Below, piece after piece: positions 12,152-53,348 of a stretch of 64,000 nt of DNA; the first letter of the stretch is position 1, and every line of letters starts with the position of its first letter. Below the pieces are notes generated by a model. That model did not search any database, was not told the origin of the DNA, and was given only the letters and a program-made list of their open reading frames with translations. The stretch spans positions 12,531-76,530 of the forward strand of contig JBOHZR010000141.1 of NCBI GenBank assembly GCA_050738595.1, given 5' to 3'. The DNA is from Steroidobacteraceae bacterium (GTDB lineage: Bacteria; Pseudomonadota; Gammaproteobacteria; Steroidobacterales; Steroidobacteraceae). The position numbers and the translations under genes are program-made.

Positions 12152-13774
12152 ATGAGCGAGCTTCTGTTCGAGCTGGTCCTGCGCTCCGCGGATCGCAGTG
12201 CGGATGCGCCGAGCCTATCTCACAAGAATCGAACGCTGAACTATGGCGCGCTCGCATCGCAAATCGAGAGTTTCGCACGCGGCTTGCTCGATCTGAACCT
12301 CGCGCGGGCCGATCGCGTCGCGGTCTATCTTCCCAAGCAGCCCGAAACGGTCGTCACGATGTTTGGAGCGGCCCGGGCGGGTTGCGCATTCGTTCCTGTG
12401 AATCCCCTCCTCAAGCCGGAGCAGGTCGGCCACATCCTGCGCGACTGCAACGCGCGCGTTCTCGTGACATCACCCGAACGAAGCGCGACGCTCGCCACCA
12501 CGACCGCGGCCTGTCCCGACTTGCGCCACGTCGTCCTGGTCGCGGGCCGGGACGGATCCCCTCCGGGGGCGAGTGGGGCTGACCGAGCACCGGGCAATTC
12601 CCCTGCCGCGCATCCTTGGAACGCTTTGCTTATAGATGGCCGGCCCCTGGCTGGTCATCGAGTCATTGACACCGATCTCGTGTCGATCTTTTACACATCC
12701 GGAAGTACCGGCAGGCCAAAAGGCGTCGTGCTGTCGCATCAGAACATGGTCACGGGCGCTCACAGCGTCTGCCAATATCTCGGCAATGTCGCCACGGACC
12801 GGCTTCTCGCGGTGCTGCCCTTCAGCTTCGATTATGGCTTCAGCCAGCTCTCCACGGCGTTTCATGTCGGCGCGAGTGTTGTGCTGATGGATTACCTCCT
12901 CGCCGGTGATGTCGTCAAGGAGATCGCCAAGGACCGCATCACGGGTCTGGCGGGCGTGCCGCCGCTCTGGAGCCAGCTCTGCGATCTCGAGTGGCCGGAC
13001 GCGGCACGCAAGAGCCTGCGGTATTTCACCAATTCAGGCGGTGCGATGCCGCTTGCCGTGCTGCGCAAGTTGAGAGCCTCCCTGCCCGACACACAGCCAT
13101 TTCTCATGTACGGACTCACGGAAGCGTTTCGTTCCACGTACCTGCCGCCCTCGGAGGTCGACCGGCGGCCCGAGTCGATGGGCAAGGCGATACCGAACGT
13201 CGAGGTGCTCGTCGTTCGCCCCGACGGTTCACTGTGCGGTCCGAACGAGCCTGGAGAGCTCGTCCACCGCGGTCCGCTGGTCTCACTCGGCTACTGGAAT
13301 GACACGCAGAAGACCGGGGAGCGTTTCAAGCCGGTGCCGAGTCAGAACCCCGCCCTCCCCCTCACCGAGATCGCGGTATGGTCGGGAGACACCGTCCGCA
13401 TGGACGACGAGGGGTTCTTATATTTCGTAGGTCGGCGCGACGAGATGATCAAGACCTCGGGCTATCGCGTCAGTCCCACGGAGATCGAGGAGATCCTGTT
13501 CGCGACCGGTCTCGTCGCAGACGTGGTGGCGGTAGGCGTCTCACACCCCACGCTCGGCCAGGCGATTGCCGTCGTAGCAACGCCTGCGCCGAGTGCCGCA
13601 GCCGATACGGATAACCTCCTCGAGACGTGCCGGCGACAGCTCCCCAGATACATGGTGCCTCACCACATCGACTGGCGCGATTCGATCCCGCGCAACCCGA
13701 ACGGCAAGTACGACCGGCCCAGATTGGCTGCCGAGCTCGGCGGAATTTTCGGTTCCAAGGGAAAAGGCGCATGA
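12152..13774 (+). CDS. acyl-CoA ligase (AMP-forming), exosortase A system-associated type, copy 1
   Basis: 540 aa. IFYTSGSTGRPKGV, SFDYGFSQL and WSGDTVRMDDEGFLYFVGRRDEMIKTSGYRVSPTEIE. ATGA start/stop overlap with the downstream decarboxylase. Confidence 0.8.
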   Translation: MSELLFELVLRSADRSADAPSLSHKNRTLNYGALASQIESFARGLLDLNLARADRVAVYLPKQPETVVTMFGAARAGCAFVPVNPLLKPEQVGHILRDCNARVLVTSPERSATLATTTAACPDLRHVVLVAGRDGSPPGASGADRAPGNSPAAHPWNALLIDGRPLAGHRVIDTDLVSIFYTSGSTGRPKGVVLSHQNMVTGAHSVCQYLGNVATDRLLAVLPFSFDYGFSQLSTAFHVGASVVLMDYLLAGDVVKEIAKDRITGLAGVPPLWSQLCDLEWPDAARKSLRYFTNSGGAMPLAVLRKLRASLPDTQPFLMYGLTEAFRSTYLPPSEVDRRPESMGKAIPNVEVLVVRPDGSLCGPNEPGELVHRGPLVSLGYWNDTQKTGERFKPVPSQNPALPLTEIAVWSGDTVRMDDEGFLYFVGRRDEMIKTSGYRVSPTEIEEILFATGLVADVVAVGVSHPTLGQAIAVVATPAPSAAADTDNLLETCRRQLPRYMVPHHIDWRDSIPRNPNGKYDRPRLAAELGGIFGSKGKGA

Positions 13775-15009
13775 GTGTAGATGCCTTCGTCCAGCACGCG
13801 CCACACCCGTACTACGAGGTGCACGACGATTGCCTCACGATCGACGGGCGATCGCTCCTCGAAGTCGCTGCCCAAGCTGGCGGCACACCCTTCTACGTCT
13901 ATTCACGAGAATACATGACGACGCGCGTCCGGGAGCTGCGCAGCACGCTCCCGGAGGGGATACATCTGCACTATGCAGTCAAGGCAAACCCGATGCCCGC
14001 TGTGGTGTCGCACATGGCCGGGCTCGTCGATGGATTGGATGCGGCCTCAGCCCGCGAGGTGCAATTGGGACTCGACGCCGGAGCGCATGCTCGGTGTATC
14101 AGCTTTGCCGGACCAGGTAAGACGATCCTCGAGCTGGAGCAAGCGGCCGCTGCCGGCATCGTGGTCAACGTCGAATCCGAGCGCGAGATCAAAATATTGG
14201 CTGACGTGGGCCGGCGGTCTACTAGTAAACCGCGTATCGCCATTCGCGTGAATCCGGACTTCGAGCTGCGAACATCCGGAATGAAAATGGGCGGTGGCCC
14301 GAAGCAGTTCGGGATCGATAGTGAGCGAGTCCCCGAGATCCTCGCCGGGCTCGCTGGCCTGCCATTGGAGTTCGTGGGGTTTCACATCTTCAGCGGCTCG
14401 CAGAATCTCCGCGCCGATTCGATCGTCGAGGCACAGCAGAAGGCCGTTGATCTTGCCATCCGCCTCGCCCGGCGTGCCCCAGCGCAAGTTCGCCTGCTCA
14501 ACATCGGCGGGGGCTTCGGGATTCCGTACTTCCCGGGCGACCAGCCGCTCGAAACCGCCCCGATCGCGGCCAATTTGAAGCGCCTGCTACCTGCGGTCCG
14601 GCAACATCTGCCCGATGCGCATCTCGTCATCGAGCTCGGCCGTTACTTGGTAGGGGAATGCGGTCTCTATGTGTGCAAAGTCATCGATCGAAAGGTCTCC
14701 CGCGGACACACGTTCCTCGTGACGGACGGCGGTCTGCACCACCACCTCGCGGCTTCCGGCAATTTCGGGCAGGTAATTCGTAAGAATTACCCCGTGCTCA
14801 TCGGAAATCGCGTTCGTGGATCGCAGCGAGAGATCGCCTCCGTAGTGGGACCGCTCTGCACGCCATTGGACTTGCTCGCGGACCGGATGGACCTCGCGGT
14901 GGCGGTGGAGGGCGACCTCGTCGCTATCTTCCAGAGCGGCGCGTATGGGCTAACTGCAAGCCCGCTCCGATTCCTCGGACATCCGGAGCCAATCGAGCTC
15001 GTGGTCTGA
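13771..15009 (+). CDS. PLP-dependent decarboxylase (Orn/DAP/Arg decarboxylase fold), exosortase A system-associated type, copy 1
   Basis: ORF 13627-15009 trimmed to the ATG at aa 49 (MSVDAFV), which overlaps the ligase stop. PLP-lysine motif YAVKANP, GGGFGIPY and ELGRYLVGE. Confidence 0.85.
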   Translation: MSVDAFVQHAPHPYYEVHDDCLTIDGRSLLEVAAQAGGTPFYVYSREYMTTRVRELRSTLPEGIHLHYAVKANPMPAVVSHMAGLVDGLDAASAREVQLGLDAGAHARCISFAGPGKTILELEQAAAAGIVVNVESEREIKILADVGRRSTSKPRIAIRVNPDFELRTSGMKMGGGPKQFGIDSERVPEILAGLAGLPLEFVGFHIFSGSQNLRADSIVEAQQKAVDLAIRLARRAPAQVRLLNIGGGFGIPYFPGDQPLETAPIAANLKRLLPAVRQHLPDAHLVIELGRYLVGECGLYVCKVIDRKVSRGHTFLVTDGGLHHHLAASGNFGQVIRKNYPVLIGNRVRGSQREIASVVGPLCTPLDLLADRMDLAVAVEGDLVAIFQSGAYGLTASPLRFLGHPEPIELVV

Positions 15010-16374: not shown

Positions 16375-16756
16375 TCACAAACCCCCTTTTGCGCTCCGTC
16401 GTTACGTCCTGGACCTCGACATAATGCGGGCCGACCGCACCTTGAATTTAACATGACCATCATGCGCCCGCGTCGATTCTGCGACGCCCCCCCCGTTTGA
16501 CGCGCTCGACTCCGATCGAATGTGCTACGGATCACAACTTCCAAACGCCGACTTCACCGACGAGATCTCCGTATTAGTCTCCACCGGACGTTGTGCCGCG
16601 AGTTCCCTATCGAGGATGCCCGGCGCGAGCGTGACGCGCACCACATTCTCAAGACATCCGATTCCAAAGTTCGACACGCGCCGTCGCCTCACAACGACAG
16701 CTTTCGCTTTGGCTTAGCAGGTAGCATCATAGCGATGGAAGTCAGGAGATCCTGCT

Positions 16757-17977
16757 ATGAGACGACGCGAATTCCTTGCAGGCACCCTTGGAACGCTTGG
16801 GACGTCGGGGCCGGTTATCACTATCGCAGCGAGCACGCCCTGCCCGCCTCCTACCGTCGCCCTGACCCGAAGTGCGGCCGTCGGAACCCCTTGCGCGTTG
16901 CCCAGCAGCGCTTCGCCCGAGTGGCTGAAGGGCGCGGGCGTCTACCAGTGGATCAATCTTCCCTCGTTGAGTGCCTCGAGCGTTCTGCCGAACCCGCTGC
17001 CACCGGGCATCACCGGCGTCGCCTCGGTAACCGACGCGTGGGGTGGTGGTGCATTGCGCCAGAACGGCAGCTACTACATTCTGCATGGTGGTGGGCACGG
17101 CGATTACTCGGGCAATGAAATCTACGTATTGCAGCTCTCGCTGGATAACCCGCAGTGGGTTCGCATCTGGGGACCCACGCCGAATGCGCAGATCGTTCAA
17201 GATCAATACTATTACAACGATTCCCCGCCCTCGCCGGCCTCCGTTCACACCTACTACTCCCTGATGTACGACGATCAGGATGACGTATTGATGCGGTTCA
17301 TGAAAGGACAGTACACGCTTCCGGATTACACTGGCGGAATTGACGGCATAAAATGGGGCGCGGCAAGCTGGGAACAGAATCAGAAAAATGCGATCTGGCC
17401 GCTGCCGCCCCCCTCATTCCTCTTCAGCAACGGGCAGTGCAAAGACGGGAATGGCAACGTATACATGGTCAACTCGTGGAATCGATTCATGTGGAATCGC
17501 CAAGCGAACTCCTGGTCCACGCCGATTGCCAAGTCACCTTATGCGGTGCAGTCCTCCGGATGCTGTTTTGACTCTAAGCGTGGCGTCGTGTGGTCTTTTG
17601 GCGGCAGTTACGGAGGCGGCTCGATCCACGCCGGCAAAGCCTATTCGTGGAACGTGCAGAACAACTCCGAAGCCTTGATCACACTTAGCGGCCCCAACGC
17701 AGGCGCCATAGACGGGGTCAACGCCAATTTTTCCGGTGCGGTGTACGACCCGATAATCGATCTCGTTTTCGTGATGCCGGGTGACGGTTATATCTATTCC
17801 TTCGATCCGATGACTTATAGGGTGACGCAAATCGTGACCACCGGACCGGCACTACCCCAGACGAACGCAAGCAGCGGCACAGCCCCCTGGAACAAGCTGC
17901 AGTACGTGCCAGAGCTCGGCGGTGTAGTGATTCAGCCCCTGTGGAAGGCGCAGACGTTCTTCATGCGTACGCATTAG
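16757..17977 (+). CDS. Tat-signal secreted protein of unknown function (beta-propeller-like by eye)
   Basis: AGGAG about 10 nt upstream. MRRREFLAGTLG twin-arginine signal and an STPCPP-x13-TPC module after the signal. Gly/Trp-rich strand-like repeats (LHGGGHGDYSGNEIYVL, VWSFGGSYGGG). Confidence 0.55.
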   Translation: MRRREFLAGTLGTLGTSGPVITIAASTPCPPPTVALTRSAAVGTPCALPSSASPEWLKGAGVYQWINLPSLSASSVLPNPLPPGITGVASVTDAWGGGALRQNGSYYILHGGGHGDYSGNEIYVLQLSLDNPQWVRIWGPTPNAQIVQDQYYYNDSPPSPASVHTYYSLMYDDQDDVLMRFMKGQYTLPDYTGGIDGIKWGAASWEQNQKNAIWPLPPPSFLFSNGQCKDGNGNVYMVNSWNRFMWNRQANSWSTPIAKSPYAVQSSGCCFDSKRGVVWSFGGSYGGGSIHAGKAYSWNVQNNSEALITLSGPNAGAIDGVNANFSGAVYDPIIDLVFVMPGDGYIYSFDPMTYRVTQIVTTGPALPQTNASSGTAPWNKLQYVPELGGVVIQPLWKAQTFFMRTH

Positions 17978-17991
17978 CGCTTGCGGACGTA

Positions 17992-19254
17992 TCAGTTGAA
18001 TTCTGTGATCGAGTGCGGGCGCCGTCCGAGGACTGCGACGCCATCGCGCACGACGATCTCGGCTGGCGTGCGTCTTCCGAGGAACAGTATCGGACTCGCC
18101 GTGAGACCGTAGCTCCCGGAGTGAAGCACGCCGATAAGGTCGCCGACCTCCGGGGTGGGCAAGGACACATCGACCCCCAGCAGGTCCGTCGGGTTGCAGG
18201 ACGGACCAGAGATCGTGCAGGTCGCAACCTGTGCCCCGGGCCGGCTCAGATTACGGAGCGCGAACTGTGTTCTCAGCACCGCCCCGAAAGTCCCGGCCGC
18301 GGCAAGGTGATGGTGCAGACCACCATCGAGCACGCAGAATTTTTTGCCGCGGCTGCTCTTGAGCGAGATGACCCGGGCAACATAGATTCCTACATCGGAG
18401 AGCAGGAAGCGTCCGAGCTCGAACAGCACTCGTCGGGGCCGGGCCGACGAGTCGCGAAACGCTCGCAGCATCGGCACGAGCGAGGAACCAACCTGCGCGA
18501 GCGGCAACTGTCGCGACTCGTCCGAGTGGGACGCGCCAAAGCCTCCCCCGAGGTTCACCGTCGCGCAGAACACGTCCGTCCCAGCACCCTCGACACTCTT
18601 TACGAGGCGCAGAGTTCCATTGACCTCTTCGACGATGCCCTCCGGCTCGAAGCACTGGCTGCCCGAATACACATGCAGTCCCCGAAAGTCGAGGTTCGCG
18701 AGATTCTCGGTGACCACTCTGACCGCGCCCGGCAGATCTTCCTCGTCGATGCCGAATTGCGTCGCCCGACCGCCCATTTTGAGCCCGAAGCTGCGGTTCA
18801 AACGGAGCGGGTTGACCCGAAGACCGATGGGTACCCGCCGGCCCGCTCTATGGCCGAGGGCGACGCAGTCCTCGAGTTCGCGGTGAGACTCGATGCTGAT
18901 GCAGCCGACTCCCGCCTCCATGGCAGCGGACAATTCCTCGACCGACTTGGCGGGACCGGCGAAACTCAAGCACTCTGGTGCATAACCCGCAAGCAGAGCC
19001 TGCTCGAGCTCGCCGGCGGACGAGATGTCGAGACCATCGACGGTCGCGCGAATCGCCTGCAGAAGCTCGAGGTTTGGATTTGCCTTGACGGCATAATATA
19101 CGGAGACGAGCCCTTCAAAGGCCGCACGGACCTGCTCGACGCGCGAGCGCACGACATCTGCATCATAGAGAAAGTACGGCGTGCCGTACTGCCGCGCTAA
19201 AGCCTGAAAGTCGTACGCCATCGGACTTCCGGCTGGCGAAGATCGTCCACTCAC
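17992..19254 (-). CDS. PLP-dependent decarboxylase (Orn/DAP/Arg decarboxylase fold), exosortase A system-associated type, copy 2
   Basis: 420 aa. The start is either GTG 19254, overlapping the upstream stop, or ATG 19221. YAVKANP, NLGGGFG and ELGRFLLSD. Clear paralog of 13771-15009. Confidence 0.85.
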   Translation of the reverse strand: MSGRSSPAGSPMAYDFQALARQYGTPYFLYDADVVRSRVEQVRAAFEGLVSVYYAVKANPNLELLQAIRATVDGLDISSAGELEQALLAGYAPECLSFAGPAKSVEELSAAMEAGVGCISIESHRELEDCVALGHRAGRRVPIGLRVNPLRLNRSFGLKMGGRATQFGIDEEDLPGAVRVVTENLANLDFRGLHVYSGSQCFEPEGIVEEVNGTLRLVKSVEGAGTDVFCATVNLGGGFGASHSDESRQLPLAQVGSSLVPMLRAFRDSSARPRRVLFELGRFLLSDVGIYVARVISLKSSRGKKFCVLDGGLHHHLAAAGTFGAVLRTQFALRNLSRPGAQVATCTISGPSCNPTDLLGVDVSLPTPEVGDLIGVLHSGSYGLTASPILFLGRRTPAEIVVRDGVAVLGRRPHSITEFN

Positions 19255-20582
19255 CGTCCGACCTCCGGCTCCCTGACAGCGTTGCGATCATTGCCGACCT
19301 CGAGCTCCTTCTGGGTGAGGCCTTTGAGACACAGGAGCCCTTCTATCCACAGGGCGTACTTGCGGTCGACGCTGACGATCGGCGCGTCCTCTGCATCTGC
19401 CGTGACGAGCTGCACAACTTTCCGCCCGATTTCCTCATCGAGCGCCTGCGCCGCGCCGCCCGTGAGCATGACCTGAGCCACCTTGGACAGATCCGCCATC
19501 GGAAGGCCGGGACCACGCCCGCTCGCGAATCGCTCCAGAGCGAGGAACAGACAGCCGTAAGACAGGAGTGGCCCGCTGGGATCATACGCGTCCTCCCGCA
19601 TTGCCCGAAAGATCTCCGGTGACTTGCGGCCCTCGACGACGGCCAGGAACTCGTACAGCCGAGGATGGGCGCGCAACTGCATGATCAACGAATCCCGCGA
19701 GGCAAAGATGCCGAGGTCCGTGAACACGTGCCGTCCCACCGAGGTACCTGTGAGAGGACGTTCGGGACTGTCGTCGCGGACGATCTCCGTCGTGTAATGC
19801 AGATCGGTGGTCGCTCCCCCAATGTCGAGCAGCAGACAAGGGGAGAAAACCACCACGCTCGATTGATTGGCGATCGCCTGCTGAAAGCCACGGTTGGCGA
19901 CCTCAGGGGTCGGCCGCACGCCGCGCCGAAGCCTCTCCGGGAGTTCACTCACACCCTCCTTGAAGATCAGATCATCGAGGTACGCACGTCGCACAGCCTC
20001 GAACACGCTCGGCTGGTTTCCCGCGAGGGACGTCGCGAGAGGATTGGCGATGACGATCGCATCCGCGAATCGATCGAGCAGCGCCGCGCTCTCGAATCGA
20101 TTCCCGCAATAAACGAGCGTACGGAACCGATACCGTGCAGGGTCGAATCGCTCGAGGTGTGTCCTCAACGGGGCTGCGTCCGGACAGTCGACACCGCCGG
20201 CGATGATGAGCAGGTCCACCATGCCGTGCGCGGAGGGTTCCTCGTCGAAGGAATCGACGAACACTGGATTCGCGCCCGCGAGGAGCACTTGGTTGCGCAC
20301 CGCAGAACCGCTGTATTCTTTCGAAAGGCAAAGTATGCCGACCCGCAGCCCCCCATTCGCCGACGAGGAGATGAGGATATCGTCCGTCTCGATGTCGGCC
20401 CCCGTCGCCGCGAGGAGACTGCCGACTTGAGACGCAATGCCCGCCGTGAAGTCACGCGGGTGGAACTGCTGTGAACAAATCTCTCCGGATGGCCCGATCC
20501 GCGCAACCTTCACGATCGTAGATCCAATATCGATCGCAAAACGGGCCGTGGTGCGATCCGAAGGTCTCGTCGTATCGTCCAT
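19251..20582 (-). CDS. glmL: glutamate mutase accessory protein (GlmL/MutL family, ASKHA-like)
   Basis: 443 aa. FAIDIGSTIVKVA and LLDIGGATTDL phosphate-binding-type motifs. Sits directly after the E subunit, as in clostridial mutase operons. Confidence 0.6.
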   Translation of the reverse strand: MDDTTRPSDRTTARFAIDIGSTIVKVARIGPSGEICSQQFHPRDFTAGIASQVGSLLAATGADIETDDILISSSANGGLRVGILCLSKEYSGSAVRNQVLLAGANPVFVDSFDEEPSAHGMVDLLIIAGGVDCPDAAPLRTHLERFDPARYRFRTLVYCGNRFESAALLDRFADAIVIANPLATSLAGNQPSVFEAVRRAYLDDLIFKEGVSELPERLRRGVRPTPEVANRGFQQAIANQSSVVVFSPCLLLDIGGATTDLHYTTEIVRDDSPERPLTGTSVGRHVFTDLGIFASRDSLIMQLRAHPRLYEFLAVVEGRKSPEIFRAMREDAYDPSGPLLSYGCLFLALERFASGRGPGLPMADLSKVAQVMLTGGAAQALDEEIGRKVVQLVTADAEDAPIVSVDRKYALWIEGLLCLKGLTQKELEVGNDRNAVREPEVGR

Positions 20583-20586
20583 TGCA

Positions 20587-21993
20587 TCAGGACATCAGGT
20601 TGATATCGGCAAGCAGCTGTCGATAGGTTCGACTCGACTGGTCTGGCTTGCCCTGCAGAAGGTCGTGCTCCTCGCGGAGATCATGGCCCGAGATCGGGAC
20701 GGCGCCTGGGTCAACGATACGGATCGAGCGGTTGGCGTCCCGCCGGGAGAGGAGGCGATTCGCGTTGTCCGCGTGAGGCGAGAACGGAACATCCAGGTAG
20801 CCGAGCTGAAAAGCTCGAAAGACGCTCTCCCAGAACGCATCGCCCGAGAGAGCGAATACAGCCTCGAGAATGCTGCGGGCCTCGGAGCCGATGACGGCGA
20901 TCTCGCGCTCGACTACCGCGCTACCGAGCGGCTCGGCGGACGCAAACACCGTCATGGCATATCGGACGGTCTCGACCGCTTCCGCATTGATCTCGGAGCT
21001 GGGCACGCCCATGGCCTCGTCGACTGTCTTCACGACCACCTTATCCGCATTCACGAGCGAGGCGATCACGCTGGCGCCTGCAATGAGTGCCGCCGCCTTG
21101 GATCGACTTTGCGGGAATTGACCCATCCACTGGTGATAAACGAGGAACGTCTCAACGTCCTCGAATCCGAACTTTTCTAGATACTCGCGGGCGGTTTTCC
21201 TGAGCACGACCGCAGTGGCTAAGTCCTGCGTGAATGAGCCGGTCTGTCCGTAACTCACGGCGAAGCTCTTGACGCCCTGCTCAGCGGCAAGCAGCAGCTC
21301 AATCACCTCGATTGCAACGGCGATCGCGGGGGGAACCAGCGTCGCCGTCAAGGGACCGAAGCTCTCGCGATGAATCGGTCGATCCTCGGTCGAATAAAGG
21401 GCGCAAACCCGATCGACATACTGCCAGTAGAGCAGCGCTCGGTCGAGCGGGAAACCCTCGGAATAAGGCAGGCAATAACATATACCGCCCCCCTCGATCT
21501 CGGCGATGCCAGATGCGATTGCAATCTCGACGAGTAGTCGTGCGTCGGGCGTACCGTGACGGAGACTCACGGGCTTCTCAAGGTCCGTGTAAAGCGCGCG
21601 CGTGACCTCATGACCGTGGCACACGAGAGGATAGCCGTTGAGATAGTTTTTCGCCTCCTCCTCGCTGCGCTTGAGTAGATGCATCGCGGTACCGTACTGG
21701 TTCTGCCGCGTGCAGCTGTCTATGGTGAGTGGTATGAAATCTGCGCCCGCGCTACTCAACCTCTGGGTCAGCTCGAATTGCGCCTCGAAGAGCGGGAAAC
21801 CGCCGCGCGGCTGCAGGTACGGCCGCCGGTCGCGCTCGGCGTACACGACACGCGGAAATCTGCGGCGAGGGATCTTCCGTAGGAATTCCGCGACCTCCTC
21901 CGTCGAGATACCTCGCGCGAAGCTGCTGGCGAGCACGTGCTCGCGCTGACTCGTCACGTCACGGAGTCGGGCTCGAACGGTCGGAGGCGCCAA
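20587..21993 (-). CDS. glmE: methylaspartate (glutamate) mutase, E catalytic subunit
   Basis: 468 aa. Collinear by eye with clostridial GlmE: TIDSCTRQNQY, RHGTPDARLL, EGGGICYCLPY, FGPLTATLVPP, LLAAEQGVK, HQWMGQFPQSRSKA, VVKTVDEAMGVP. The start is TTG 21993 or GTG 21957. Confidence 0.85.
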   Translation of the reverse strand: MAPPTVRARLRDVTSQREHVLASSFARGISTEEVAEFLRKIPRRRFPRVVYAERDRRPYLQPRGGFPLFEAQFELTQRLSSAGADFIPLTIDSCTRQNQYGTAMHLLKRSEEEAKNYLNGYPLVCHGHEVTRALYTDLEKPVSLRHGTPDARLLVEIAIASGIAEIEGGGICYCLPYSEGFPLDRALLYWQYVDRVCALYSTEDRPIHRESFGPLTATLVPPAIAVAIEVIELLLAAEQGVKSFAVSYGQTGSFTQDLATAVVLRKTAREYLEKFGFEDVETFLVYHQWMGQFPQSRSKAAALIAGASVIASLVNADKVVVKTVDEAMGVPSSEINAEAVETVRYAMTVFASAEPLGSAVVEREIAVIGSEARSILEAVFALSGDAFWESVFRAFQLGYLDVPFSPHADNANRLLSRRDANRSIRIVDPGAVPISGHDLREEHDLLQGKPDQSSRTYRQLLADINLMS

Positions 21994-22420
21994 GCGTCAG
22001 GTCCTTTTTTAGATCAGCGATTGCGATGCTGATGTCGGGCTGCTGATGATAGACGCGGTCGAAGCCGAATTGTCTGAACAATCTCGTCACATCTTCGCGA
22101 TCGCGCTGCCCCACGACGATGTTGCCACCGACGTAGAGCAGGATCCCACCGAGTCCGACGGAGACGAACTGGCGCCGGAAGTCGGCACACCAATGCTCGC
22201 CCTCTCCGTTGAGCGACGAGACGAACACCGCCTGCGCATTCGTCTCGAGCGCCGCGTGACAGAAATGGACCGGGCGGTTGCGAGTACGGATGTTGAAAAC
22301 CGCGAAGCCCGATTCCTCGAGTGCGAGCTGCATGATCCGATTGCCGACGACGTGGATATCATCGCCGATCACCCCGATGACGACCCGGCCAAGGGACTGC
22401 TTGGCGGGCGTCTCCTTCAC
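21959..22420 (-). CDS. glmS: methylaspartate (glutamate) mutase, S cobalamin-binding subunit (not glucosamine-6-P synthase)
   Basis: ORF 21959-22645 trimmed to the GTG at aa 76, giving a GTGA overlap with the ligase stop. VVIGVIGDDIHVVGN carries the DxHxxG cobalamin-His motif; also VSSLNGEGE and LYVGGNIVVG...FGFDRVY. Confidence 0.8.
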   Translation of the reverse strand: MKETPAKQSLGRVVIGVIGDDIHVVGNRIMQLALEESGFAVFNIRTRNRPVHFCHAALETNAQAVFVSSLNGEGEHWCADFRRQFVSVGLGGILLYVGGNIVVGQRDREDVTRLFRQFGFDRVYHQQPDISIAIADLKKDLTLGASDRSSPTP

Positions 22421-24003
22421 TGCTGCACGCGTCCGCGCTCTGCCTGGCCGTGCGCGAGCCCGAGCCGCTCGAAAGTGGCTTCCCTGATTCGCTTGCGGTC
22501 GAGCTTGCCGGCATTGCCAGTGATCGGAAACGAATCGAAATGAAGCAAGTAGGCTGGAACCATATGGTTCGGTAGACACCCCTTGAGAAACCGGCGCAGC
22601 GTCGCTTCCGGGATTTGCCTTCCGCTCAACGTCGTATACGCGCACGCGACATCCTCGCCCACGCTGATGTTGGGCACGGCGAACGCGACTGCGTCCACGA
22701 TCTCGGGATGTCGCACAGTCTCGACCTCGACCTCGGTGGGGCTGACCCTGAATCCGCGTGTCTTGATCATCTCGTCACCGCGCGCGACGAAGTAAAGGTA
22801 TCCTTCCTCGTCCCGATGCACGCGATCTCCGCTGAAGACGAGCGTCTCGCCCGGAAATCTCGGATGCGATCGAAATACGCGGTCCGTGTTTTCGGGATCG
22901 TTCCAATAGCCCTTGGTGACCGTAGCGCCGCGATGCACGAGCTCGCCTACTACGCCGGCCGGACACTCCTCCCCTTTCTCGTCGAGTACCATCACCTGGC
23001 AATCCGGGATCGCCTTGCCGATGGAGGTCGGATGCTGGTCGAGCTTCGATGGATCGAGATAGGTCGACCGGAAGGCCTCGGTGAGGCCGAACATCGAGAA
23101 GATCTGAGCCGATGGGAATGTGCGCCGGACGTCGTGGATCATCTCGTCCGAGAGCCGGCCGCCCGTCGAGCAGATGTAGCGAAGCGCCGAGAAGTCGCGT
23201 CCGGTGGTGTTGACCGGCAGCCGCTTGTCGAAGATCTTCGTGATGAACACGGGCATGAGCGGGAGTGCCGTAATGCGCTCGTTCGCGAGCAGCGCGAACA
23301 GGTCGGCCGGAAGCGCGAGGTCGTGCAAATGGAGGCTGCAGCCCTTGCGAAGCGTCTGCCAGATCTGATTGAGCCCGTAATCGAAATTGAAGGAGAGAAC
23401 GCAGCCGATCCGCTCGTCTTCGCGCGTATCGAGATACTCCGCGATGATGTCCGCGCCATCGGCAAGGTTGCGATGGGAGATCAGGATCCCCTTTGGCCGG
23501 CCGGTCGATCCGGAGGAGTAAATGATCGCCGCATTGTCGTTTCCGATCCGTTCGTAGATGAGACGCGGCTCGATGTGCTCACGCATGTAAGCAATGTTCG
23601 GGAATTTGGCGTCGAGCGCGCCGTGACCAACCAGGAGCTTTACCAGCGAGGCGAACTCGGCGACCTCACTCATCCTGTCGGAGTCGGTGATCATCGCCGT
23701 CATCCCCGAGTTCTCGATGATGTGACGTACGTTCGCAGGCTTGAGCCGCGGCAGGATGGGCACGACGACGGCATTTGCGAACAGCACACCCAGGATCGCG
23801 GACACTTGGTCGACCGTCTTCTCCATGCAGATGCCGACGCGATCCCCGCTCCGGATGCCGATGTCACGCAGACATGCGGCGGTCGCCTGTGCCTCCCGAG
23901 CAAGAGCAGCGAAGGTGACGCGGCGCGCGGGGGAGATGATCGCGAGCTTCTCTGGGAGCCTCGCAGCCGTGTCCAGCAGAAAGGCGGGAATCGATCGCAT
24001 CAT
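22417..24003 (-). CDS. acyl-CoA ligase (AMP-forming), exosortase A system-associated type, copy 2
   Basis: 528 aa. IIYSSGSTGRPKGI, SFNFDYGLNQI and FSGDRVHRDEEGYLYFVARGDEMIKTRGFRVSPTEVE. ATGA overlap with the upstream ACP stop. Paralog of 12152-13774. Confidence 0.8.
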   Translation of the reverse strand: MMRSIPAFLLDTAARLPEKLAIISPARRVTFAALAREAQATAACLRDIGIRSGDRVGICMEKTVDQVSAILGVLFANAVVVPILPRLKPANVRHIIENSGMTAMITDSDRMSEVAEFASLVKLLVGHGALDAKFPNIAYMREHIEPRLIYERIGNDNAAIIYSSGSTGRPKGILISHRNLADGADIIAEYLDTREDERIGCVLSFNFDYGLNQIWQTLRKGCSLHLHDLALPADLFALLANERITALPLMPVFITKIFDKRLPVNTTGRDFSALRYICSTGGRLSDEMIHDVRRTFPSAQIFSMFGLTEAFRSTYLDPSKLDQHPTSIGKAIPDCQVMVLDEKGEECPAGVVGELVHRGATVTKGYWNDPENTDRVFRSHPRFPGETLVFSGDRVHRDEEGYLYFVARGDEMIKTRGFRVSPTEVEVETVRHPEIVDAVAFAVPNISVGEDVACAYTTLSGRQIPEATLRRFLKGCLPNHMVPAYLLHFDSFPITGNAGKLDRKRIREATFERLGLAHGQAERGRVQQ

Positions 24004-24257
24004 GGCTGCGAGCTCACGGTGCCTCGCCTCTTCTCAACGAGCCGAAGCAGGTCGGACAACCGCGCAAGGTTCTCACGGACGAGATCTTCGGGCTCGAACT
24101 CGATGCCGAACTCCGACTGCGCGAAAACGGCGAGACTCACGATGCTGAAGGAATCCAGGATTTGGGTTTTCAGCAGATCGGCGTCGGCCGAAATCTCTCC
24201 TGAGAATCCGGTTTCGCGTCGAATGTAATCTCTCAAAATCTCAAGTTCCGAGGCCAT
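24000..24257 (-). CDS. stand-alone acyl carrier protein
   Basis: 85 aa. LKTQILDSFSIVSLAVFAQSEFGIEFEPEDL, with the carrier serine in LDSF. Confidence 0.7.
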   Translation of the reverse strand: MASELEILRDYIRRETGFSGEISADADLLKTQILDSFSIVSLAVFAQSEFGIEFEPEDLVRENLARLSDLLRLVEKRRGTVSSQP

Positions 24258-24328
24258 CTGTAGTCTTCTTTTCTGCCAAATCTGAATGCGAGCTCATCCC
24301 GTCGCGACCACCACCGACCCGCCCCCTC

Positions 24329-25105
24329 TCAGCTCGAAAGCGCTGCCGGGTACAACGCTATTCTTGCGCGAGACCTGCCACTCGGCGAGAGGTAGAGATA
24401 AGGAGCGATTGTAGAGGCGATTATCTCGACTGACCAGAACTTGAAGATAACGGCCGCTCCCACCCTGCGCCACCGGAGATGCCCATGCGCGCGGCGCGAT
24501 GCTATGTTGAATCGCGTCAGACGGCTGAACGACCAGCTGATGCCTCGAGCTCGCAAATACTCGTTTGTGCCATGCCAGAGGCCGGCGAAACCGAGGCCCA
24601 TCCGATACTCCGGAAGCACGACGAGATCGAAATCGAACACGGCCTGGCCGCGCGGATTCACGATGAACGTGCACCGCGCCTCATCCTCCTCGTAGCGCTC
24701 GAAGCAGAGCCAGACATAGCCGATCAGGTGCTCCCCGGAATACGTCCCGAGGCATATCGAGCTCTGCGAGAATCGCGCGTGCTGCACGGCTTGAGGGGCG
24801 ACGACGGCGGCAAGGTCCGGATGGCCCCGTTCGAGAACCCGGACGCTGAGCTTGCGCGCGAGGCGCGACGGCAGGATCGGTGTCGGCGAAATCGGCTGCA
24901 CCATGAGCTCGTAGACCAGCACTCGCAGCTGCGGTGATAGACGCGACAGCACGCGGTCGAGCGCGTAGAGCGTTCCGCATAGCAGGCCGAACTCCTGAAA
25001 GGGACTGATGAGCCGCCTCCACATAGCGCGGCCTAGGCTACACTCGGCCGCCGTATCGAGCCTGGGTCCATGTCCGAATGGTGGCTTGTTCCGCGCGACA
25101 TACAC
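24329..25105 (-). CDS. GNAT-like acyltransferase
   Basis: 258 aa with a GTG start. Acetyltransferase motif-A-like LVVLPEYRMGLGFAGLW (RxxGxG). By-eye call. Confidence 0.5.
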   Translation of the reverse strand: MYVARNKPPFGHGPRLDTAAECSLGRAMWRRLISPFQEFGLLCGTLYALDRVLSRLSPQLRVLVYELMVQPISPTPILPSRLARKLSVRVLERGHPDLAAVVAPQAVQHARFSQSSICLGTYSGEHLIGYVWLCFERYEEDEARCTFIVNPRGQAVFDFDLVVLPEYRMGLGFAGLWHGTNEYLRARGISWSFSRLTRFNIASRRAHGHLRWRRVGAAVIFKFWSVEIIASTIAPYLYLSPSGRSRARIALYPAALSS

Positions 25106-25261
25106 GCATCGAGACCGTCATCCCGTGGCGCAATCTTAAGGTAAATAATAGGGTTATTGGTGCAAGAGGCACCGGTCGTGCGTCGCACAATTCGACCATC
25201 GCGCGGATTCGATGCTGAGAAGCTTCCGAAGTGCGAAATCGATCAGAATCGCGGGCAGGCG

Positions 25262-28520: not shown

Positions 28521-29429
28521 CTAACCCGGCGTCCCGCCGATGCCGCCGAGCCAATCGATTACGCAGAGCGAGGCCTTCGCGAGCGATTCTCGTGAGGAAA
28601 ACGTGTGGTCCGCATCACTGAGGCGCACCTCGCGGACGCGCGGCGACGACAGGCATCGTCGCCACAATGATGACCCGCCGCGGTAGTCCTCGAATTCCGC
28701 GGCCGTCAGGTCTTGTCCGCTAAGGATGAGGAGAATGGGCTTCTCGAACGCGCCGATTCCCTCGGCCATGCGATCGAGGAAGTTACGCGTCCCCGTGCGC
28801 TTCGGATCAGGGCCGCTTTCACCGGACCACCAGGCGCGCCGCACGAGAGTGACGAAATCCCGCACGACTGTCCGGGGCTCCAAGGCACCGGAGCCGATCT
28901 TCCTCCAGAGCGATCGCTCCGTGAGCCTGCGCCAGTAGTAGTGGCGCACTATGGCACGTGCAGCTCCGGATTCGGTTCGTACCCAAGGGTTGATGAGGAC
29001 GAGGCCGGCGAGGCGCGCATCGCTCTTGCAGTACATGAGAGCCGCAGAGGCAGCATCACACAGGCCGAGTACAACGACGGCCCGTAAGGCAAGTTCTGCG
29101 GCGAAGAACGCGTCGATCGCCGCCCGAATATCGTCATCAATCGATTCGAATGTGCGCCTCGATCCGCTGCTGTCACCCATACCACGATAATCGAAGCGCA
29201 GCGCCGCGTAGCCTTCTGCGGCCAGGCGACGCGCCATGAGAACGAACTGCCTGTGACTGCCAGCCCGATACTGAGGTCCTCCGACGACGACTAGCACGCC
29301 GACGCTGCGGCTCGCAGCGGCCGGCCGATGCACGATAGCGACGAGATCGTCTCCTTCGCACCGAAACACGATTGCGCTTTCGCGACTCGCGCTCGTCGAA
29401 GGCGCCGCCGGTTGAATGACGGAGCTCAT
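28521..29429 (-). CDS. alpha/beta hydrolase, exosortase A system-associated pair member
   Basis: ORF 28521-29483 trimmed to the ATG at aa 19 (MSSVIQP), giving an ATGA overlap with the upstream stop. FDYRGMGDSSG loop. The predicted nucleophile elbow VVVLGLCDAASAAL has Cys in the Ser position. Confidence 0.75.
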   Translation of the reverse strand: MSSVIQPAAPSTSASRESAIVFRCEGDDLVAIVHRPAAASRSVGVLVVVGGPQYRAGSHRQFVLMARRLAAEGYAALRFDYRGMGDSSGSRRTFESIDDDIRAAIDAFFAAELALRAVVVLGLCDAASAALMYCKSDARLAGLVLINPWVRTESGAARAIVRHYYWRRLTERSLWRKIGSGALEPRTVVRDFVTLVRRAWWSGESGPDPKRTGTRNFLDRMAEGIGAFEKPILLILSGQDLTAAEFEDYRGGSSLWRRCLSSPRVREVRLSDADHTFSSRESLAKASLCVIDWLGGIGGTPG

Positions 29430-30256
29430 ATCGATGCTCCACAAAGGGCACCCACCGTGGCGCGCACCATCTCGTCGAGGCATGCGACCTCGACCGTGGC
29501 CCAGAACGGCTCTCCGGTAAACGTACGCACGAACACGTGCCCGGCAGATTGCTCGTCGTGACCGATGAGCCTGCGCGAGGACTCGGCGATCCCCTCTTCC
29601 GGGTCGCGGATCACCTCCATCCAGTGGATCGACTCGAAGGGTTTCGGTAGCTCCCGGGGTGGGACGAGCGCATCCAGATCGGCGGCGAGACCACCCTCGA
29701 CCGGGTACCCGCCGACCTCCAGCGTCTCGCCCGCGGCAAGCCGCGCGCGCAATTCCGTTACCCGTTCACGGCGAGCTTCGGCGAGCGCTCCCGCCGCCGT
29801 CCGCAGGCGCAGGAACTGTGTGAGATGCCTGCCCCCGTCGAAAACGGGTTGCCAGAGCACGGCGCTCGGAGCTTCGACTATGCGTCCCGCACTGACCGCT
29901 GAAAGTGCGAGTGCCGCGCCGAGCCGGATCGCAAGGATCGAGGTGACGGGCGCGCCCTGATGCGAGCTCCAGGCGCAGACGCGTGCAAGATCGTCTTCCC
30001 AAACGCTCCAGCGAGCCTCCGCGAAGTCTCCGTCACTATCGCCGGTTCCGAAAAGGTCCGGCACGAGCACGGCGCTTCCTTCCGCTGCGAGCCGCAGGGC
30101 CGTCTCCGTCACCATGCGACGGCACTTGTTCATCTCTTCCGCAAAGGGTGGCACGACGAGCACGCACCTCGATATGTGCCGCGGCCGTCGCACCAGAAGG
30201 AAAAGCTCGCCCTTCCCGCCCGGCAAACGATATGCGGATACTGTGGTGTCGCTCAC
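29426..30256 (-). CDS. alpha/beta hydrolase, exosortase A system-associated pair member
   Basis: 276 aa with a GTG start, giving a GTGA overlap with the ACP stop. PDLFGTGDSDG loop. The elbow-position segment SILAIRLGAALAL has no Ser or Cys. Confidence 0.7.
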   Translation of the reverse strand: MSDTTVSAYRLPGGKGELFLLVRRPRHISRCVLVVPPFAEEMNKCRRMVTETALRLAAEGSAVLVPDLFGTGDSDGDFAEARWSVWEDDLARVCAWSSHQGAPVTSILAIRLGAALALSAVSAGRIVEAPSAVLWQPVFDGGRHLTQFLRLRTAAGALAEARRERVTELRARLAAGETLEVGGYPVEGGLAADLDALVPPRELPKPFESIHWMEVIRDPEEGIAESSRRLIGHDEQSAGHVFVRTFTGEPFWATVEVACLDEMVRATVGALCGASI

Positions 30257-30504
30257 ACCGCCGCTTTTTCGGACACGAACCTGACGAGTTTGCCCAGCGT
30301 TGCGAAGACTTCCGCGTTCAATTCATCGTCTTCGACTGTGATTCCGCACTCGTCCTCGAGCATCGTGATCACCTGCACCACGGCCATCGAGTCAAGCTCG
30401 GGTATACTGCCGAGGAGCGGACTCTCCTCGGTGAGTTGATCGGCGCGAGCGCCCAGATTGAGTGCATCTCGGAGGATGTTCTTGACCTGCTTGACTCTGT
30501 CCAT
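30253..30504 (-). CDS. stand-alone acyl carrier protein (exosortase A locus type)
   Basis: ORF 30253-30558 trimmed to the ATG at aa 19 (MDRVKQV). LLGSIPELDSMAVVQVITMLEDECGI carries the DSM serine. Confidence 0.7.
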   Translation of the reverse strand: MDRVKQVKNILRDALNLGARADQLTEESPLLGSIPELDSMAVVQVITMLEDECGITVEDDELNAEVFATLGKLVRFVSEKAAV

Positions 30505-51734: not shown

Positions 51735-53348
51735 ATGAATGATGTGAATCACCAGCTACCGCCGCCGCCAGCTGACGGCATGCGCCGTGAAATCCCGATA
51801 CCGGCCCTCCGAGCACTCTGGCCCCAAGTAAGCGCCGTGTACCCGTCGGCGCTCGTGTTGCTCGGAGCTGTCGCCGCCGCGGCGCTGGCTGTCTGGCCCA
51901 CCTGGCCGGCGCTCCTGACGACTTGGCACGTGATGCCCGACTACGATTATGCAGAGCTGCTCGTCCCCTTCATCGTCGGATGGCTTGCCGCTCGCTGCGC
52001 GCGGCTGCCGAAGCCGACGGCGCGGATGTCGCCATTCGCCCTCGCAGCGCTCCTCGCGGCCTTTTGCGTCTGGCTCGTGGCGTACCAGGCTTCGAGCAAC
52101 ATCGGCGAACAGCTGATGGTTCCGGCGATCCTCTTGACCGCTTTGTGGACGGCGTTCGGATTGCCGATCGCCAAGCGGATGGCGGTACCTGTCGCCTGTC
52201 TCTATTTCGCGATCCCACTCTGGGAATTCCTCGTCCCCGTTCTCCAAAGCGCCGGTGTCTGGGTCGCCGAGACCGTCCTCGGCCTGGTCGGTGTCCCGGT
52301 GCACATCGCGGGCAATCTCGTGAGCATCCCGGAGGGGACGTTCCAGATCGCCGAGGCGTGTGCGGGCCGGCGCTACTTCGTCGTCTGCGTCACGATCGCC
52401 GCACTGCTCGCCGGAACCAGCCGGATGCGGCCCCTGCGGGCGATCTCTTTTATGGTTCTTGCGGGCGCCCTCGCGATCGTCATGAACTGGATTCGCATCC
52501 TGACGGTCCTCTACGCGGGCCACATCACGAACATGCAGAGCTATCTCGTCCGCGTCGAACATGTGAGCTTTGGATGGGCTCTGTTCGCCGTCCTCATGGT
52601 CATCGTGTGCCTGATCGGCTCGCGCCTCGCCCGGTCCGGAACGCTGCCGCCAACCGCGACTGAGCCGAGTCGCGGGGCCGCCGGCGTACGCGAGCTGCTG
52701 ATGCGGCCTGCGGTGCCCATCACCGCGCTGGTCCTGTTGATTCCAGTCCTGGCCATCATGTACTCGAGATATGAGCTCGGCTCCGGTGCCGCCTCGCAGA
52801 GCGATGAGGCCGCGACGGTGATCCTTCCCGGGAGGGCGCGCGGCTGGCTCGGTCCCCACGCACCCCGCTCTGGCTGGCGACCTCGCTACCAAGGCGCAGC
52901 CGCCACGCAGCGCGCCGGGTATCAGAGTGCAGCGGGCGAGGTTGAGGTATTCATCGCTCAGTACGGCCACGAGCAACCGGGCGCGAAACTCGTGAGCTCC
53001 GCGAACGACTTGTTTCCGACCGACTGGATCGTACTGAACGAAGGCGTGCTCGCAGGCGGTGCTGGCCGCGGGGCGAATGACTATGCTCGGCTGCTTCGGT
53101 TGGCAACCCCGCTCGGCGCGCAGTGGGAGATTAGCTATTTGTACCGCGTCGATGGGTTCGTGACGCGAAGCGCCGCGGCCGCGCAGATTGCGCGCGGAGT
53201 CCTGGGCTGGACAGGCCCGATCCGCTCCCGGATCGCTGCCGTGGCGAGTCGCTGCCGGCCCTCATGTGAGGTCGCCGAGCGGCGCTTGGAAGAGTTCTGG
53301 AGCACGGCCGGCCCGCAGCTGCTCGGTGAGCCCCGATTTGGAGGATGA
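51735..53348 (+). CDS. xrtA: exosortase A (XrtA/EpsH) fused to a C-terminal EpsI-family domain
   Basis: 537 aa. Polytopic N-part with exosortase signature residues in IAEACAGRRYF (Cys), MNWIRILTV (Arg) and VEHVSFGWALF (His). The C-part, WLGPHAPRSGWRPRYQGAAATQRAGYQSAAGEVEVFIAQYGHEQPGAKLVSSANDL, is EpsI-like. Confidence 0.85.
   Translation: MNDVNHQLPPPPADGMRREIPIPALRALWPQVSAVYPSALVLLGAVAAAALAVWPTWPALLTTWHVMPDYDYAELLVPFIVGWLAARCARLPKPTARMSPFALAALLAAFCVWLVAYQASSNIGEQLMVPAILLTALWTAFGLPIAKRMAVPVACLYFAIPLWEFLVPVLQSAGVWVAETVLGLVGVPVHIAGNLVSIPEGTFQIAEACAGRRYFVVCVTIAALLAGTSRMRPLRAISFMVLAGALAIVMNWIRILTVLYAGHITNMQSYLVRVEHVSFGWALFAVLMVIVCLIGSRLARSGTLPPTATEPSRGAAGVRELLMRPAVPITALVLLIPVLAIMYSRYELGSGAASQSDEAATVILPGRARGWLGPHAPRSGWRPRYQGAAATQRAGYQSAAGEVEVFIAQYGHEQPGAKLVSSANDLFPTDWIVLNEGVLAGGAGRGANDYARLLRLATPLGAQWEISYLYRVDGFVTRSAAAAQIARGVLGWTGPIRSRIAAVASRCRPSCEVAERRLEEFWSTAGPQLLGEPRFGG

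Follow-up and report, generated by a model that had tools for sequence, protein, structure and literature searches.

What does a cobalamin-dependent glutamate mutase do inside an exosortase A exopolysaccharide (EPS) locus? The question is raised by a 64,000-nucleotide stretch of a Steroidobacteraceae genome (assembly GCA_050738595.1, contig JBOHZR010000141.1, positions 12,531 to 76,530), analysed here as a whole and referred to as the window. A first-pass annotation, made from the letters alone, had noted six minus-strand genes joined by short overlaps or gaps, encoding an acyl carrier protein (ACP), an adenylating ligase, the S and E subunits of the mutase, a GlmL-like protein and a pyridoxal phosphate (PLP) decarboxylase, and had proposed that they build a methylaspartate-derived β-aminoacyl-ACP. 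We found all six open reading frames (ORFs) on the minus strand at the positions it gave, and reading of the junctions confirmed the overlaps; however, the six-gene unit was incomplete, as a conserved seventh gene, encoding a GNAT-fold acyltransferase, belongs to it. The unit is a seven-gene operon-like cassette, in the order GNAT, ACP2, LIG2, GlmS, GlmE, GlmL-like and DEC2. We consider it probable, at about 0.6, that this cassette converts glutamate to 3-methylaspartate, loads the latter on the ACP as a β-linked thioester, decarboxylates it to 3-aminoisobutyryl-ACP and passes the product to the GNAT protein. The sequences identify the enzymes, whereas the substrate, the carrier dependence and the order of the steps are predicted.

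All seven genes lie on the minus strand. The cassette begins with the GNAT-fold acyltransferase (24329..25024), the sole transferase in this autonomous unit, and continues with the cassette-specific carrier ACP2 (24000..24257), the stand-alone adenylating enzyme LIG2 (22417..24003), the cobalamin-binding S subunit GlmS (21959..22420), the catalytic E subunit GlmE (20587..21993), a diverged GlmL-like protein of the MutL family, a putative accessory protein of B12 mutases (19251..20582), and the PLP decarboxylase DEC2 (17992..19254). As read from the sequence, ACP2 and LIG2 are joined by an ATGA overlap, and LIG2 and GlmS by a GTGA overlap. GlmS and GlmE overlap by 35 nt if GlmE starts at TTG 21993; there is an alternative in-frame GTG at 21957, but the upstream start is favoured because tblastn matches in related loci span GlmE residues 1-467. 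A gap of 4 nt separates GlmE from the GlmL-like gene, which in turn is joined to DEC2 by a GTGA overlap (an alternative in-frame DEC2 start is ATG 19221). The G+C content of the block is uniform with its surroundings, and promoter- and terminator-like matches inside it are no commoner than in shuffled sequence.

To place the cassette among other genomes, we collected related loci in a scan with GlmE, taking one genome per GTDB species, and derived the gene order by tblastn with the window proteins. This yielded 40 species-level loci with 60-73% GlmE identity, and the order GNAT-ACP-ligase-S-E-L-decarboxylase was found in essentially all of them. The recurrence of the same gene order in 40 species-level genomes means that the arrangement is not a product of chance. 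The hosts include Betaproteobacteria (Accumulibacter, Rubrivivax, the cultured Aquincola tertiaricarbonis and Nitrosospira), Gammaproteobacteria (Competibacteraceae, Woeseiaceae and Methylococcaceae), one alphaproteobacterial metagenome-assembled genome (MAG) of Rhodovibrionaceae, many Acidobacteria and one planctomycete, Bythopirellula. It should be noted that a complete cassette is also present on an 8.6-kb contig (L017) binned as 'Candidatus Gracilibacteria', where a mistake in binning is likely in view of the other hosts.

GlmS and GlmE are, by sequence, a bona fide glutamate mutase, from which we infer the activity. GlmE scores 409.9 bits against the curated methylaspartate mutase equivalog TIGR01503 (cut-off 390.1), its residues 15-447 align with GlmE of C. 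cochlearium (PDB 6h9e_B) at 333.6 bits, and it scores 431 bits against Pfam Met_asp_mut_E. Crystal structures of the clostridial subunit show seven substrate-binding residues, R66, R100, R149, H150, E171, Y177 and Y181. All seven recur unchanged in the window protein and do not vary among 39 sequences of the clade. For GlmS, the score against NF002612 is 162.8 bits (cut-off 110), that against TIGR01501 is 134.9 bits, i.e., 0.9 bit under the cut-off of 135.8, and the C. cochlearium subunit is matched at 120 bits. The cobalamin motif DxHxxG is present as GDDIHVVGN, with D, H and G invariant in 40 sequences. The initial description of the S subunit as carrying the cobalamin-His motif, of the E subunit as collinear with clostridial GlmE, and of the pair as a genuine glutamate mutase is thus borne out; neither affiliation with a different B12 isomerase nor loss of the glutamate-binding residues was found. 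The third mutase-related gene is present in 37 of the 40 loci with 48-60% identity. Its product matches Pfam MutL at 90 bits (cut-off 27) over residues 16-306 only, i.e., the N-terminal two thirds, scores 34.4 bits against glmL_fam (cut-off 204), and has no relative among the solved structures searched in the PDB; it appears to be a diverged accessory protein of the MutL family.

The ligase was compared with VinN, which adenylates 3-methylaspartate on its β-carboxyl and in which D230, S299 and R331 are reported to recognise the α-amino and α-carboxyl groups of this substrate (PMC7756342; PMC11253843). LIG2 matches Pfam AMP-binding at 261 bits. When its pocket region, residues 186-340 (between core motifs A4 and A5, plus the β13β14 loop), was used as the query against the PDB, VinN entries were the only matches at E<=1e-5. 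The alignment is gapless through the β13β14 loop, which is shortened in VinN-type enzymes, and a single consistent numbering offset of 16 was used to map the residues. LIG2 keeps the two charged positions (D230 as D208, R331 as R312), has a conservative threonine, T280, for S299, and keeps an aromatic, bulky residue, Y209, for F231; F311 stands at the position of K330. All five LIG2 residues (D208, Y209, T280, F311 and R312) are invariant in 33 sequences. The comparison with VinN-type enzymes, which had been suggested as a check, therefore shows a VinN-like pocket with the Asp, Ser/Thr and Arg positions aligned. The partner protein ACP2 matches Pfam PP-binding at 23.4 bits (cut-off 20.8), and the serine of its LDSF motif is conserved in the family.

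DEC2 is much closer to BtrK (259 bits) than to diaminopimelate (DAP) decarboxylases (<=145 bits), and its PLP lysine, K57, is conserved. BtrK is the decarboxylase of L-glutamyl-[BtrI ACP], and the Btr set to which it belongs is documented (PMC11350588). The likeness supports the proposed role of the PLP enzyme, and DEC2 is predicted to be a BtrK-type decarboxylase, i.e., of the type acting on ACP-tethered amino acids.

The GNAT gene was recognised in 35 of the 40 loci as a reading frame upstream of the ACP, with 34-54% tblastn identity. In the window, the mechanical ORF extends to 25105; its 231-aa form coincides exactly with a protein of a Steroidobacteraceae MAG that NCBI lists as hypothetical, and a search at E<=0.001 gave at least 601 relatives, of which a few bear the name GNAT acetyltransferase. 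Weak matches to Pfam Acetyltransf_1 (E<=1, best 1.2e-7) were obtained for 36 of 37 members, the window protein scoring 15.5 bits, under the Pfam cut-off of 20.7. An AlphaFold2 model from the 37-sequence alignment has a pLDDT of 89.9 and a long N-terminal helix; in Foldseek searches of the PDB it retrieved GNAT folds at probability 1.0 and TMq 0.45-0.50, among them VipF, glucosamine N-acetyltransferase, MshD and MprF. On the plus strand of a Nitrosospira MAG (L020, 387-3047), a canonical ACP1-hyd2-hyd1 set (see below) is preceded by a paralogue that shares 34% identity with the cassette GNAT, so that this set may sometimes carry a GNAT of its own.

Taken together, these assignments allow the following route to be proposed. 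In the first step, GlmS and GlmE, with the GlmL-like protein and adenosylcobalamin, would isomerise free L-glutamate to (2S,3S)-3-methylaspartate. LIG2 would then adenylate the β-carboxyl of 3-methylaspartate and load it on holo-ACP2, as the VinN-like pocket and the translational coupling to the ACP suggest. PLP α-decarboxylases require a free carboxyl on the amine-bearing carbon. The α-carboxyl must therefore stay free and the thioester must be formed through the other carboxyl, in agreement with the VinN-type orientation. Activation of the α-carboxyl, as by SlgN1, was considered for the ligase and rejected because no α-carboxyl would be left for the PLP enzyme to remove. DEC2 would strip the free α-carboxyl, producing 3-amino-2-methylpropionyl-ACP2 (3-aminoisobutyryl-ACP2), a step suggested by its closeness to BtrK and by the chemistry. 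Finally, and speculatively, the GNAT protein might transfer the acyl group to an acceptor or N-acylate its amine. The methylaspartate to β-aminoacyl-ACP route, as originally put forward, is the best-supported chemistry, given a genuine mutase, a VinN-like ligase pocket and a BtrK-like decarboxylase.

Several observations weigh against this reading or limit it. The GlmL-like protein scores 74.6 bits against the GlmL equivalog NF040745, far under the cut-off of 475. Searched at full length against the PDB, LIG2 is matched best by the adenylation domains of nonribosomal peptide synthetases (NRPS), which score equal to or above VinN (170 bits); identity to VinN within the pocket is only 22%, and phenylalanine replaces the loop residue K330. 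The choice among methylaspartate, aspartate and glutamate is not readable from the LIG2 sequence, the use of an ACP rather than coenzyme A (CoA) is suggested by the adjacency and the ATGA overlap with ACP2 alone, and the requirement of DEC2 for an ACP-bound substrate is predicted from its closeness to BtrK. Neither the Pfam comparison nor the structural matches place the GNAT protein in a subfamily, let alone in one known to use acyl-ACP: none of the acyl-ACP-using types (LuxI, FeeM, HlyC) was among 50 Foldseek matches at E<=0.001. Rfam and tRNA scans of the window were empty, and no cobalamin riboswitch, B12 gene or other hint of a cobalamin supply was seen in it. Furthermore, an EPS destination is not general, because the scanned neighbours of the cassette in four long related loci (L023, L026, L028 and L031) are unrelated to EPS.

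The first-pass annotation had also assigned the ligase, decarboxylase and ACP of the cassette to the exosortase-A-associated gene set of unexplained function. This does not hold. LIG2 and DEC2 have TIGR03098 and TIGR03099, respectively, as their best NCBIfam matches, but score under the curated cut-offs (487.6 versus 592.35 bits, and 400.5 versus 478.45 bits), and the true set, overlooked before, lies elsewhere in the window. LIG1 (12152..13774, plus strand), the canonical exosortase-A-system-associated ligase, scores 764.6 bits against TIGR03098, and DEC1 (13771..15009, plus strand), the corresponding decarboxylase, scores 607.6 bits against TIGR03099; the two genes overlap by 4 nt, the DEC1 start ATG 13771 forming ATGA with the LIG1 stop. 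On the minus strand, a canonical-type carrier, ACP1 (30253..30504), heads an operon with hydrolase 2 (hyd2; 29426..30256; TIGR03101, 226.4 bits, cut-off 202.75) and hydrolase 1 (hyd1; 28521..29483; TIGR03100, 316.6 bits, cut-off 168.45), both exosortase-A-system-associated and both generic α/β hydrolases by PDB comparison. ACP1 was found (122.6 bits) with a custom hidden Markov model (HMM) built from ACPs preceding hyd2-hyd1 in 8 related loci; it has the motif ELDSMAVV and overlaps the hyd2 start by 4 nt. The earlier gene inventory thus lacked a second ACP (30253-30504, minus) and a second ligase/decarboxylase pair (12152-15009, plus). That the window contains a single ACP was an assumption we had to reject, as ACP1 lies under a spurious ORF extension on the other strand. 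In this mechanical AsnB-like ORF (29983-32457, plus), the first ~170 codons cover ACP1; the real start is probably ATG 30634, the match to the XrtA amidotransferase model begins only at model position 115, so that the protein seems to lack the greater part of the glutaminase domain.

The window therefore holds two parallel sets, LIG1/DEC1/ACP1 with two hydrolases, and GNAT/ACP2/LIG2/mutase/DEC2. The scores of LIG2 and DEC2 under the curated cut-offs, combined with a separate set that passes them, make the cassette a paralogue of the exosortase-A-associated set; the ligases are 34.7% identical and the decarboxylases 38.6%. In the canonical arrangement, the ligase immediately adjoins the decarboxylase; LIG2 and DEC2 are set apart by the S, E and L genes, unlike the overlapping LIG1 and DEC1. 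VinN is again the nearest match to the pocket region, for LIG1 even more strongly than for LIG2 (52.5 bits, E 5e-13), with the β-amino-acid enzyme CmiS6 next, and the three VinN recognition positions (Asp, Ser/Thr, Arg) are conserved as D227, S295 and R327. Two individual features of LIG1 were observed: residue 228, after the amine-binding Asp, is Tyr, resembling LIG2 and VinN, where 15 of 16 family sequences have Ala, and residue 295, at the S299 position of VinN, is Ser where other family members have Thr. DEC1 scores 270 bits against BtrK, compared to 166 for the best DAP decarboxylase. The VinN-type recognition residues of LIG1 and the BtrK likeness of DEC1 suggest an acidic amino acid as the canonical substrate, not necessarily methylaspartate. 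By paralogy, the canonical proteins would probably apply the same logic to aspartate or glutamate, giving β-alanyl- or γ-aminobutyryl-ACP1, with the two hydrolases as candidates for off-loading. The idea that the mutase provides a first clue to the substrate of the canonical set is therefore retained in part: it informs that set by paralogy and not directly, because the cassette genes are not members of it.

As had been asserted at the outset, the cassette does sit inside an exosortase A EPS locus. The window contains the full XrtA/PEP-CTERM gene complement, including an XrtA-like exosortase with a fused C-terminal EpsI domain (51735..53348, plus strand), which scores 131.4 bits against TIGR02602 (cut-off 105.55). 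Against the XrtA-specific model TIGR03109, this protein scores 191.7 bits, just under the cut-off of 208, though all partner genes are of the XrtA type: PrsT, PrsR, PrsK, the chain-length determinant, the exporter, FemAB and the amidotransferase are all above XrtA-specific cut-offs. A tyrosine kinase, the glycosyltransferases stp2 and stp3, and PEP-CTERM cargo, likewise above its cut-off, are also present. The cassette is directly downstream of ACP1-hyd2-hyd1 on the same strand (ACP1 to DEC2, 30504 down to 17992). Counted along this strand, positions 17992-30504 comprise 12 co-directional genes: ACP1, hyd2, hyd1, genes for a twin-arginine translocation (TAT) protein and a tetratricopeptide repeat (TPR) protein, and the seven genes of the cassette.

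How regular this association is was examined in the 40 loci, in line with the suggested survey of mutase genes in XrtA loci. A TIGR03098-type (canonical XrtA) ligase, decarboxylase, ACP or hydrolase set was present within 10 kb in 22 of 40 loci, and genes of the canonical type (LIG1, DEC1, ACP1 or hydrolases, with ligase or decarboxylase at least 55% identical) in 14 of 40. In eight acidobacterial loci, an ACP-ligase-decarboxylase trio lies ~1.5 kb downstream of the cassette. Two of these were tested (L005 and L029): with ~644 bits, their ligase is above the TIGR03098 cut-off, whereas their decarboxylase narrowly misses that of TIGR03099 (438 versus 478). The trio was seen on the opposite strand, at ~15300-18900 minus, in L005, L008, L015, L029, L034, L038 and L040. 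In four loci (L002, L013, L014 and L035), LIG1 and DEC1 are separated by the cassette, the flanking genes of L013 scoring 780 bits for LIG1 and 614 bits for DEC1. A metagenome scan with LIG1 produced only four useful loci, mostly short; in the two contigs long enough to tell (L042 and L043), LIG1 and DEC1 are adjacent, without a mutase. On the other hand, the scanned neighbours in L023, L026, L028 (Aquincola) and L031 are housekeeping or regulatory genes (GlcD, Kup, MltF, a GGDEF cyclase and a HipA-like protein), and no EPS gene was among the neighbours examined in these at least four long related loci. The cassette is therefore a self-contained module, frequently but not always beside the XrtA-associated set. 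Two of its neighbours hint at a link to cyclic di-GMP (c-di-GMP) and biofilm regulation: a GGDEF diguanylate cyclase precedes the cassette in Aquincola (L028, 5097-6809, plus), and a response regulator resembling a c-di-GMP phosphodiesterase precedes it in a Competibacteraceae MAG (L026, 4856-6484, plus).

What the aminoacyl group is finally attached to can be approached from this placement. In the window, the likeliest acceptor is the exopolysaccharide or another component of the matrix or envelope, because ACP1-hyd2-hyd1 of an XrtA/PEP-CTERM locus are directly upstream of the cassette and share its strand. A broader proposal, which we put forward tentatively and would not bet on, is that both sets are paralogous carrier-protein pathways decorating the XrtA-type matrix, i.e., the polysaccharide or PEP-CTERM proteins, the canonical one with β-alanyl or γ-aminobutyryl (GABA) groups and the cassette with B12-dependent 3-aminoisobutyryl groups. 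An EPS destination competes with an explanation in which the chemistry is the same as far as 3-aminoisobutyryl-ACP, but the product is not an EPS decoration. The product would be a small N-acyl or amide metabolite, or a modification of lipid, peptidoglycan, lipopolysaccharide (LPS) or protein (e.g., PEP-CTERM cargo), and the placement in XrtA loci would reflect co-regulation. The autonomy of the cassette and its housekeeping or regulatory neighbours in the four loci just mentioned speak for such a product, as do the weak structural matches of the GNAT model to MshD and to the aminoacyl-phosphatidylglycerol synthase domain of MprF, and its long N-terminal helix. Yet 22 of 40 loci have the canonical XrtA-type set close by, four have the cassette between LIG1 and DEC1, the cassette of the window continues a co-directional array that starts with ACP1-hyd2-hyd1, and the carrier taxa are typical PEP-CTERM hosts. 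We regard a non-EPS product as rather unlikely, but as an alternative to be taken seriously.

Two other explanations concern the identity of the genes. That the six genes first described are the exosortase-A-associated set with a mutase inserted, methylaspartate being the canonical substrate, would explain why TIGR03098 and TIGR03099 are the best matches of LIG2 and DEC2, and why the cassette is found between LIG1 and DEC1 in four loci. This explanation is already contradicted by the full passing set present separately in the same window; moreover, both cassette proteins fail the family cut-offs, identities between the paralogues do not exceed the values given above, and the two metagenome contigs have adjacent LIG1 and DEC1 without a mutase. 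We consider it very improbable. Even less credence is due to a routine annotation of the genes as a fatty-acyl-CoA ligase, a DAP decarboxylase paralogue and a mutase for glutamate fermentation or the methylaspartate cycle, clustered by chance or for catabolism. LIG2 does match long-chain fatty-acid-CoA ligase models (256 bits) and DEC2 does match lysA (241.6 bits), both below cut-off; however, the invariance of the Asp that binds the amino group in LIG2 is evidence against a fatty-acid ligase, DEC2 scores far higher with BtrK than with DAP decarboxylases, no match to a methylaspartate ammonia-lyase (methylaspartase) or mesaconase was found among the ~50 window ORFs scanned, and the seven-gene synteny with its 4-nt overlaps is kept across phyla. 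The 3-aminoisobutyryl-ACP route thus remains our preferred reading of the cassette.

The chemistry of this route is already known from other systems. In the vicenistatin pathway of Streptomyces halstedii, the mutase VinH/VinI, the ligase VinN, the carrier VinL and the decarboxylase VinO provide the methylaspartate-based ACP logic of the starter unit (PMC11284099). The same four functions lead there from glutamate through 3-methylaspartate and its β-linked ACP thioester to 3-aminoisobutyryl-ACP; VinO is likened to DEC2 by role, not by sequence. Unlike the vicenistatin cluster, the cassette lacks VinM (the second ligase, which adds a protecting Ala), VinK, VinJ, a polyketide synthase (PKS) and sugar genes, contains a GNAT and a GlmL-like gene instead, and occurs in Gram-negative hosts in an EPS or housekeeping context. 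No VinM-type second ligase, VinK acyltransferase, VinJ peptidase or type I PKS domain was found in any ORF of the 64-kb window, and none of these ORFs is long enough for a PKS or NRPS, the largest being PrsT, the AsnB-like ORF, a TAT-signal protein and PrsK.

Adenylation of the side-chain carboxyl of an acidic amino acid, its attachment to a stand-alone ACP and removal of the α-carboxyl by a PLP enzyme are documented for Btr, Cta and Flv (PMC11350588), and the same carrier-tethered decarboxylation logic has been proposed for BolO/BolC/BolN of bolagladin biosynthesis in Burkholderia gladioli (PMC7756342). BolO keeps the equivalents of VinN D230, S299 and R331 and has been proposed to activate aspartate in the same orientation (PMC7756342; PMC11253843). 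Like the cassette, BolO/C/N, FlvN/L/O (fluvirucin), CtaD/E/F (closthioamide) and BtrJ/I/K (butirosin) combine a ligase, a stand-alone ACP and a BtrK-type decarboxylase, with β-alanyl- or GABA-ACP as the product (PMC7756342, PMC11350588). DEC1 and DEC2 are both closest to BtrK, and the Asp, Ser and Arg positions of VinN are common to BolO, LIG1 and LIG2 (Ser replaced by Thr in LIG2). These sets feed NRPS, PKS or aminoglycoside pathways and contain no mutase, whereas the cassette has no assembly line; BtrJ, furthermore, is an ATP-grasp enzyme, unlike the ANL ligase of the cassette.

The nearest paralogues of LIG2 and DEC2 are found in the TIGR03098-03101 exosortase-A set, which is present in the window and often stands side by side with the cassette. 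The cassette differs from it by a ligase and a decarboxylase under the cut-offs, by the three mutase genes between them, by its own ACP, and by a GNAT gene in place of the two hydrolases. By sequence and by active site, GlmS and GlmE are orthologues of the subunits in the clostridial GlmS/GlmL/GlmE system, and a MutL/GlmL-family gene is also present, but the gene order is S-E-L, not S-L-E, and the GlmL-like protein is highly diverged. Unlike clostridial glutamate fermentation, the context is biosynthetic, not catabolic, with no methylaspartase or downstream catabolic genes.

In the literature searched, no paper connects a mutase for glutamate or methylaspartate with exosortase, PEP-CTERM, EPS or Accumulibacter, and none mentions TIGR03098, TIGR03099 or the ligase, decarboxylase, ACP and hydrolase genes of XrtA loci. 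Neither the 2006 PEP-CTERM paper nor the Aquincola floc paper mentions genes of the cassette or of the canonical set, and a macrolactam genome-mining paper covers PKS-linked clusters only. In NCBIfam, the ligase, decarboxylase and hydrolase families of XrtA loci are labelled 'hypothetical equivalog', with no substrate proposed. What is new is not the chemistry but the combination of genes with a GNAT, the lack of any PKS or NRPS, the occurrence in Gram-negative bacteria and Acidobacteria, and the context of a matrix locus. VinN-like ligases and BtrK-like decarboxylases, together with a mutase-coupled paralogous set, provide a first testable biochemical hypothesis for the unexplained exosortase-A-associated genes. 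The cassette is common in builders of wastewater flocs and granules and in soil Acidobacteria. If the proposal is correct, an undescribed class of amine-bearing matrix modification exists in floc and granule formers (Accumulibacter, Competibacteraceae, Aquincola and Nitrosospira), the chemistry of their matrix is cobalamin-dependent, and this modification matters for aggregation and for cobalamin ecology. The carrier-tethered decarboxylation logic of the Vin, Flv and Btr type would then be widened from antibiotic assembly lines to the biosynthesis of the cell surface and matrix.

Several other genes of the window deserve mention. Two genes stand between hyd1 and the cassette on the same minus strand: one for a 728-aa protein that combines a TAT signal with a PcRGLX-like domain (26092-28278), and one for the TPR protein (25262-26008). 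A homologue of the latter also follows hyd1 in L013, L014 and L035, so that the canonical operon may include it. An ORF at 33993-34601 (minus), amid the EPS genes, has only a recombinase zinc-ribbon domain (PF13408) and may be the remnant of a serine recombinase or mobile element. A PaaK/DVU_1553-like AMP-dependent ligase (35186-36673, minus) and a DVU_1556-like methyltransferase (8674-9561, minus), both well under their family cut-offs, may also serve acyl modification in this locus. The left edge of the window (1802-6907) encodes a long-chain acyl-CoA synthetase, which passes its cut-off with 687.6 bits, a FabG-like short-chain dehydrogenase/reductase (SDR) and another AMP-binding enzyme, for which a role in lipid or acyl supply is possible.

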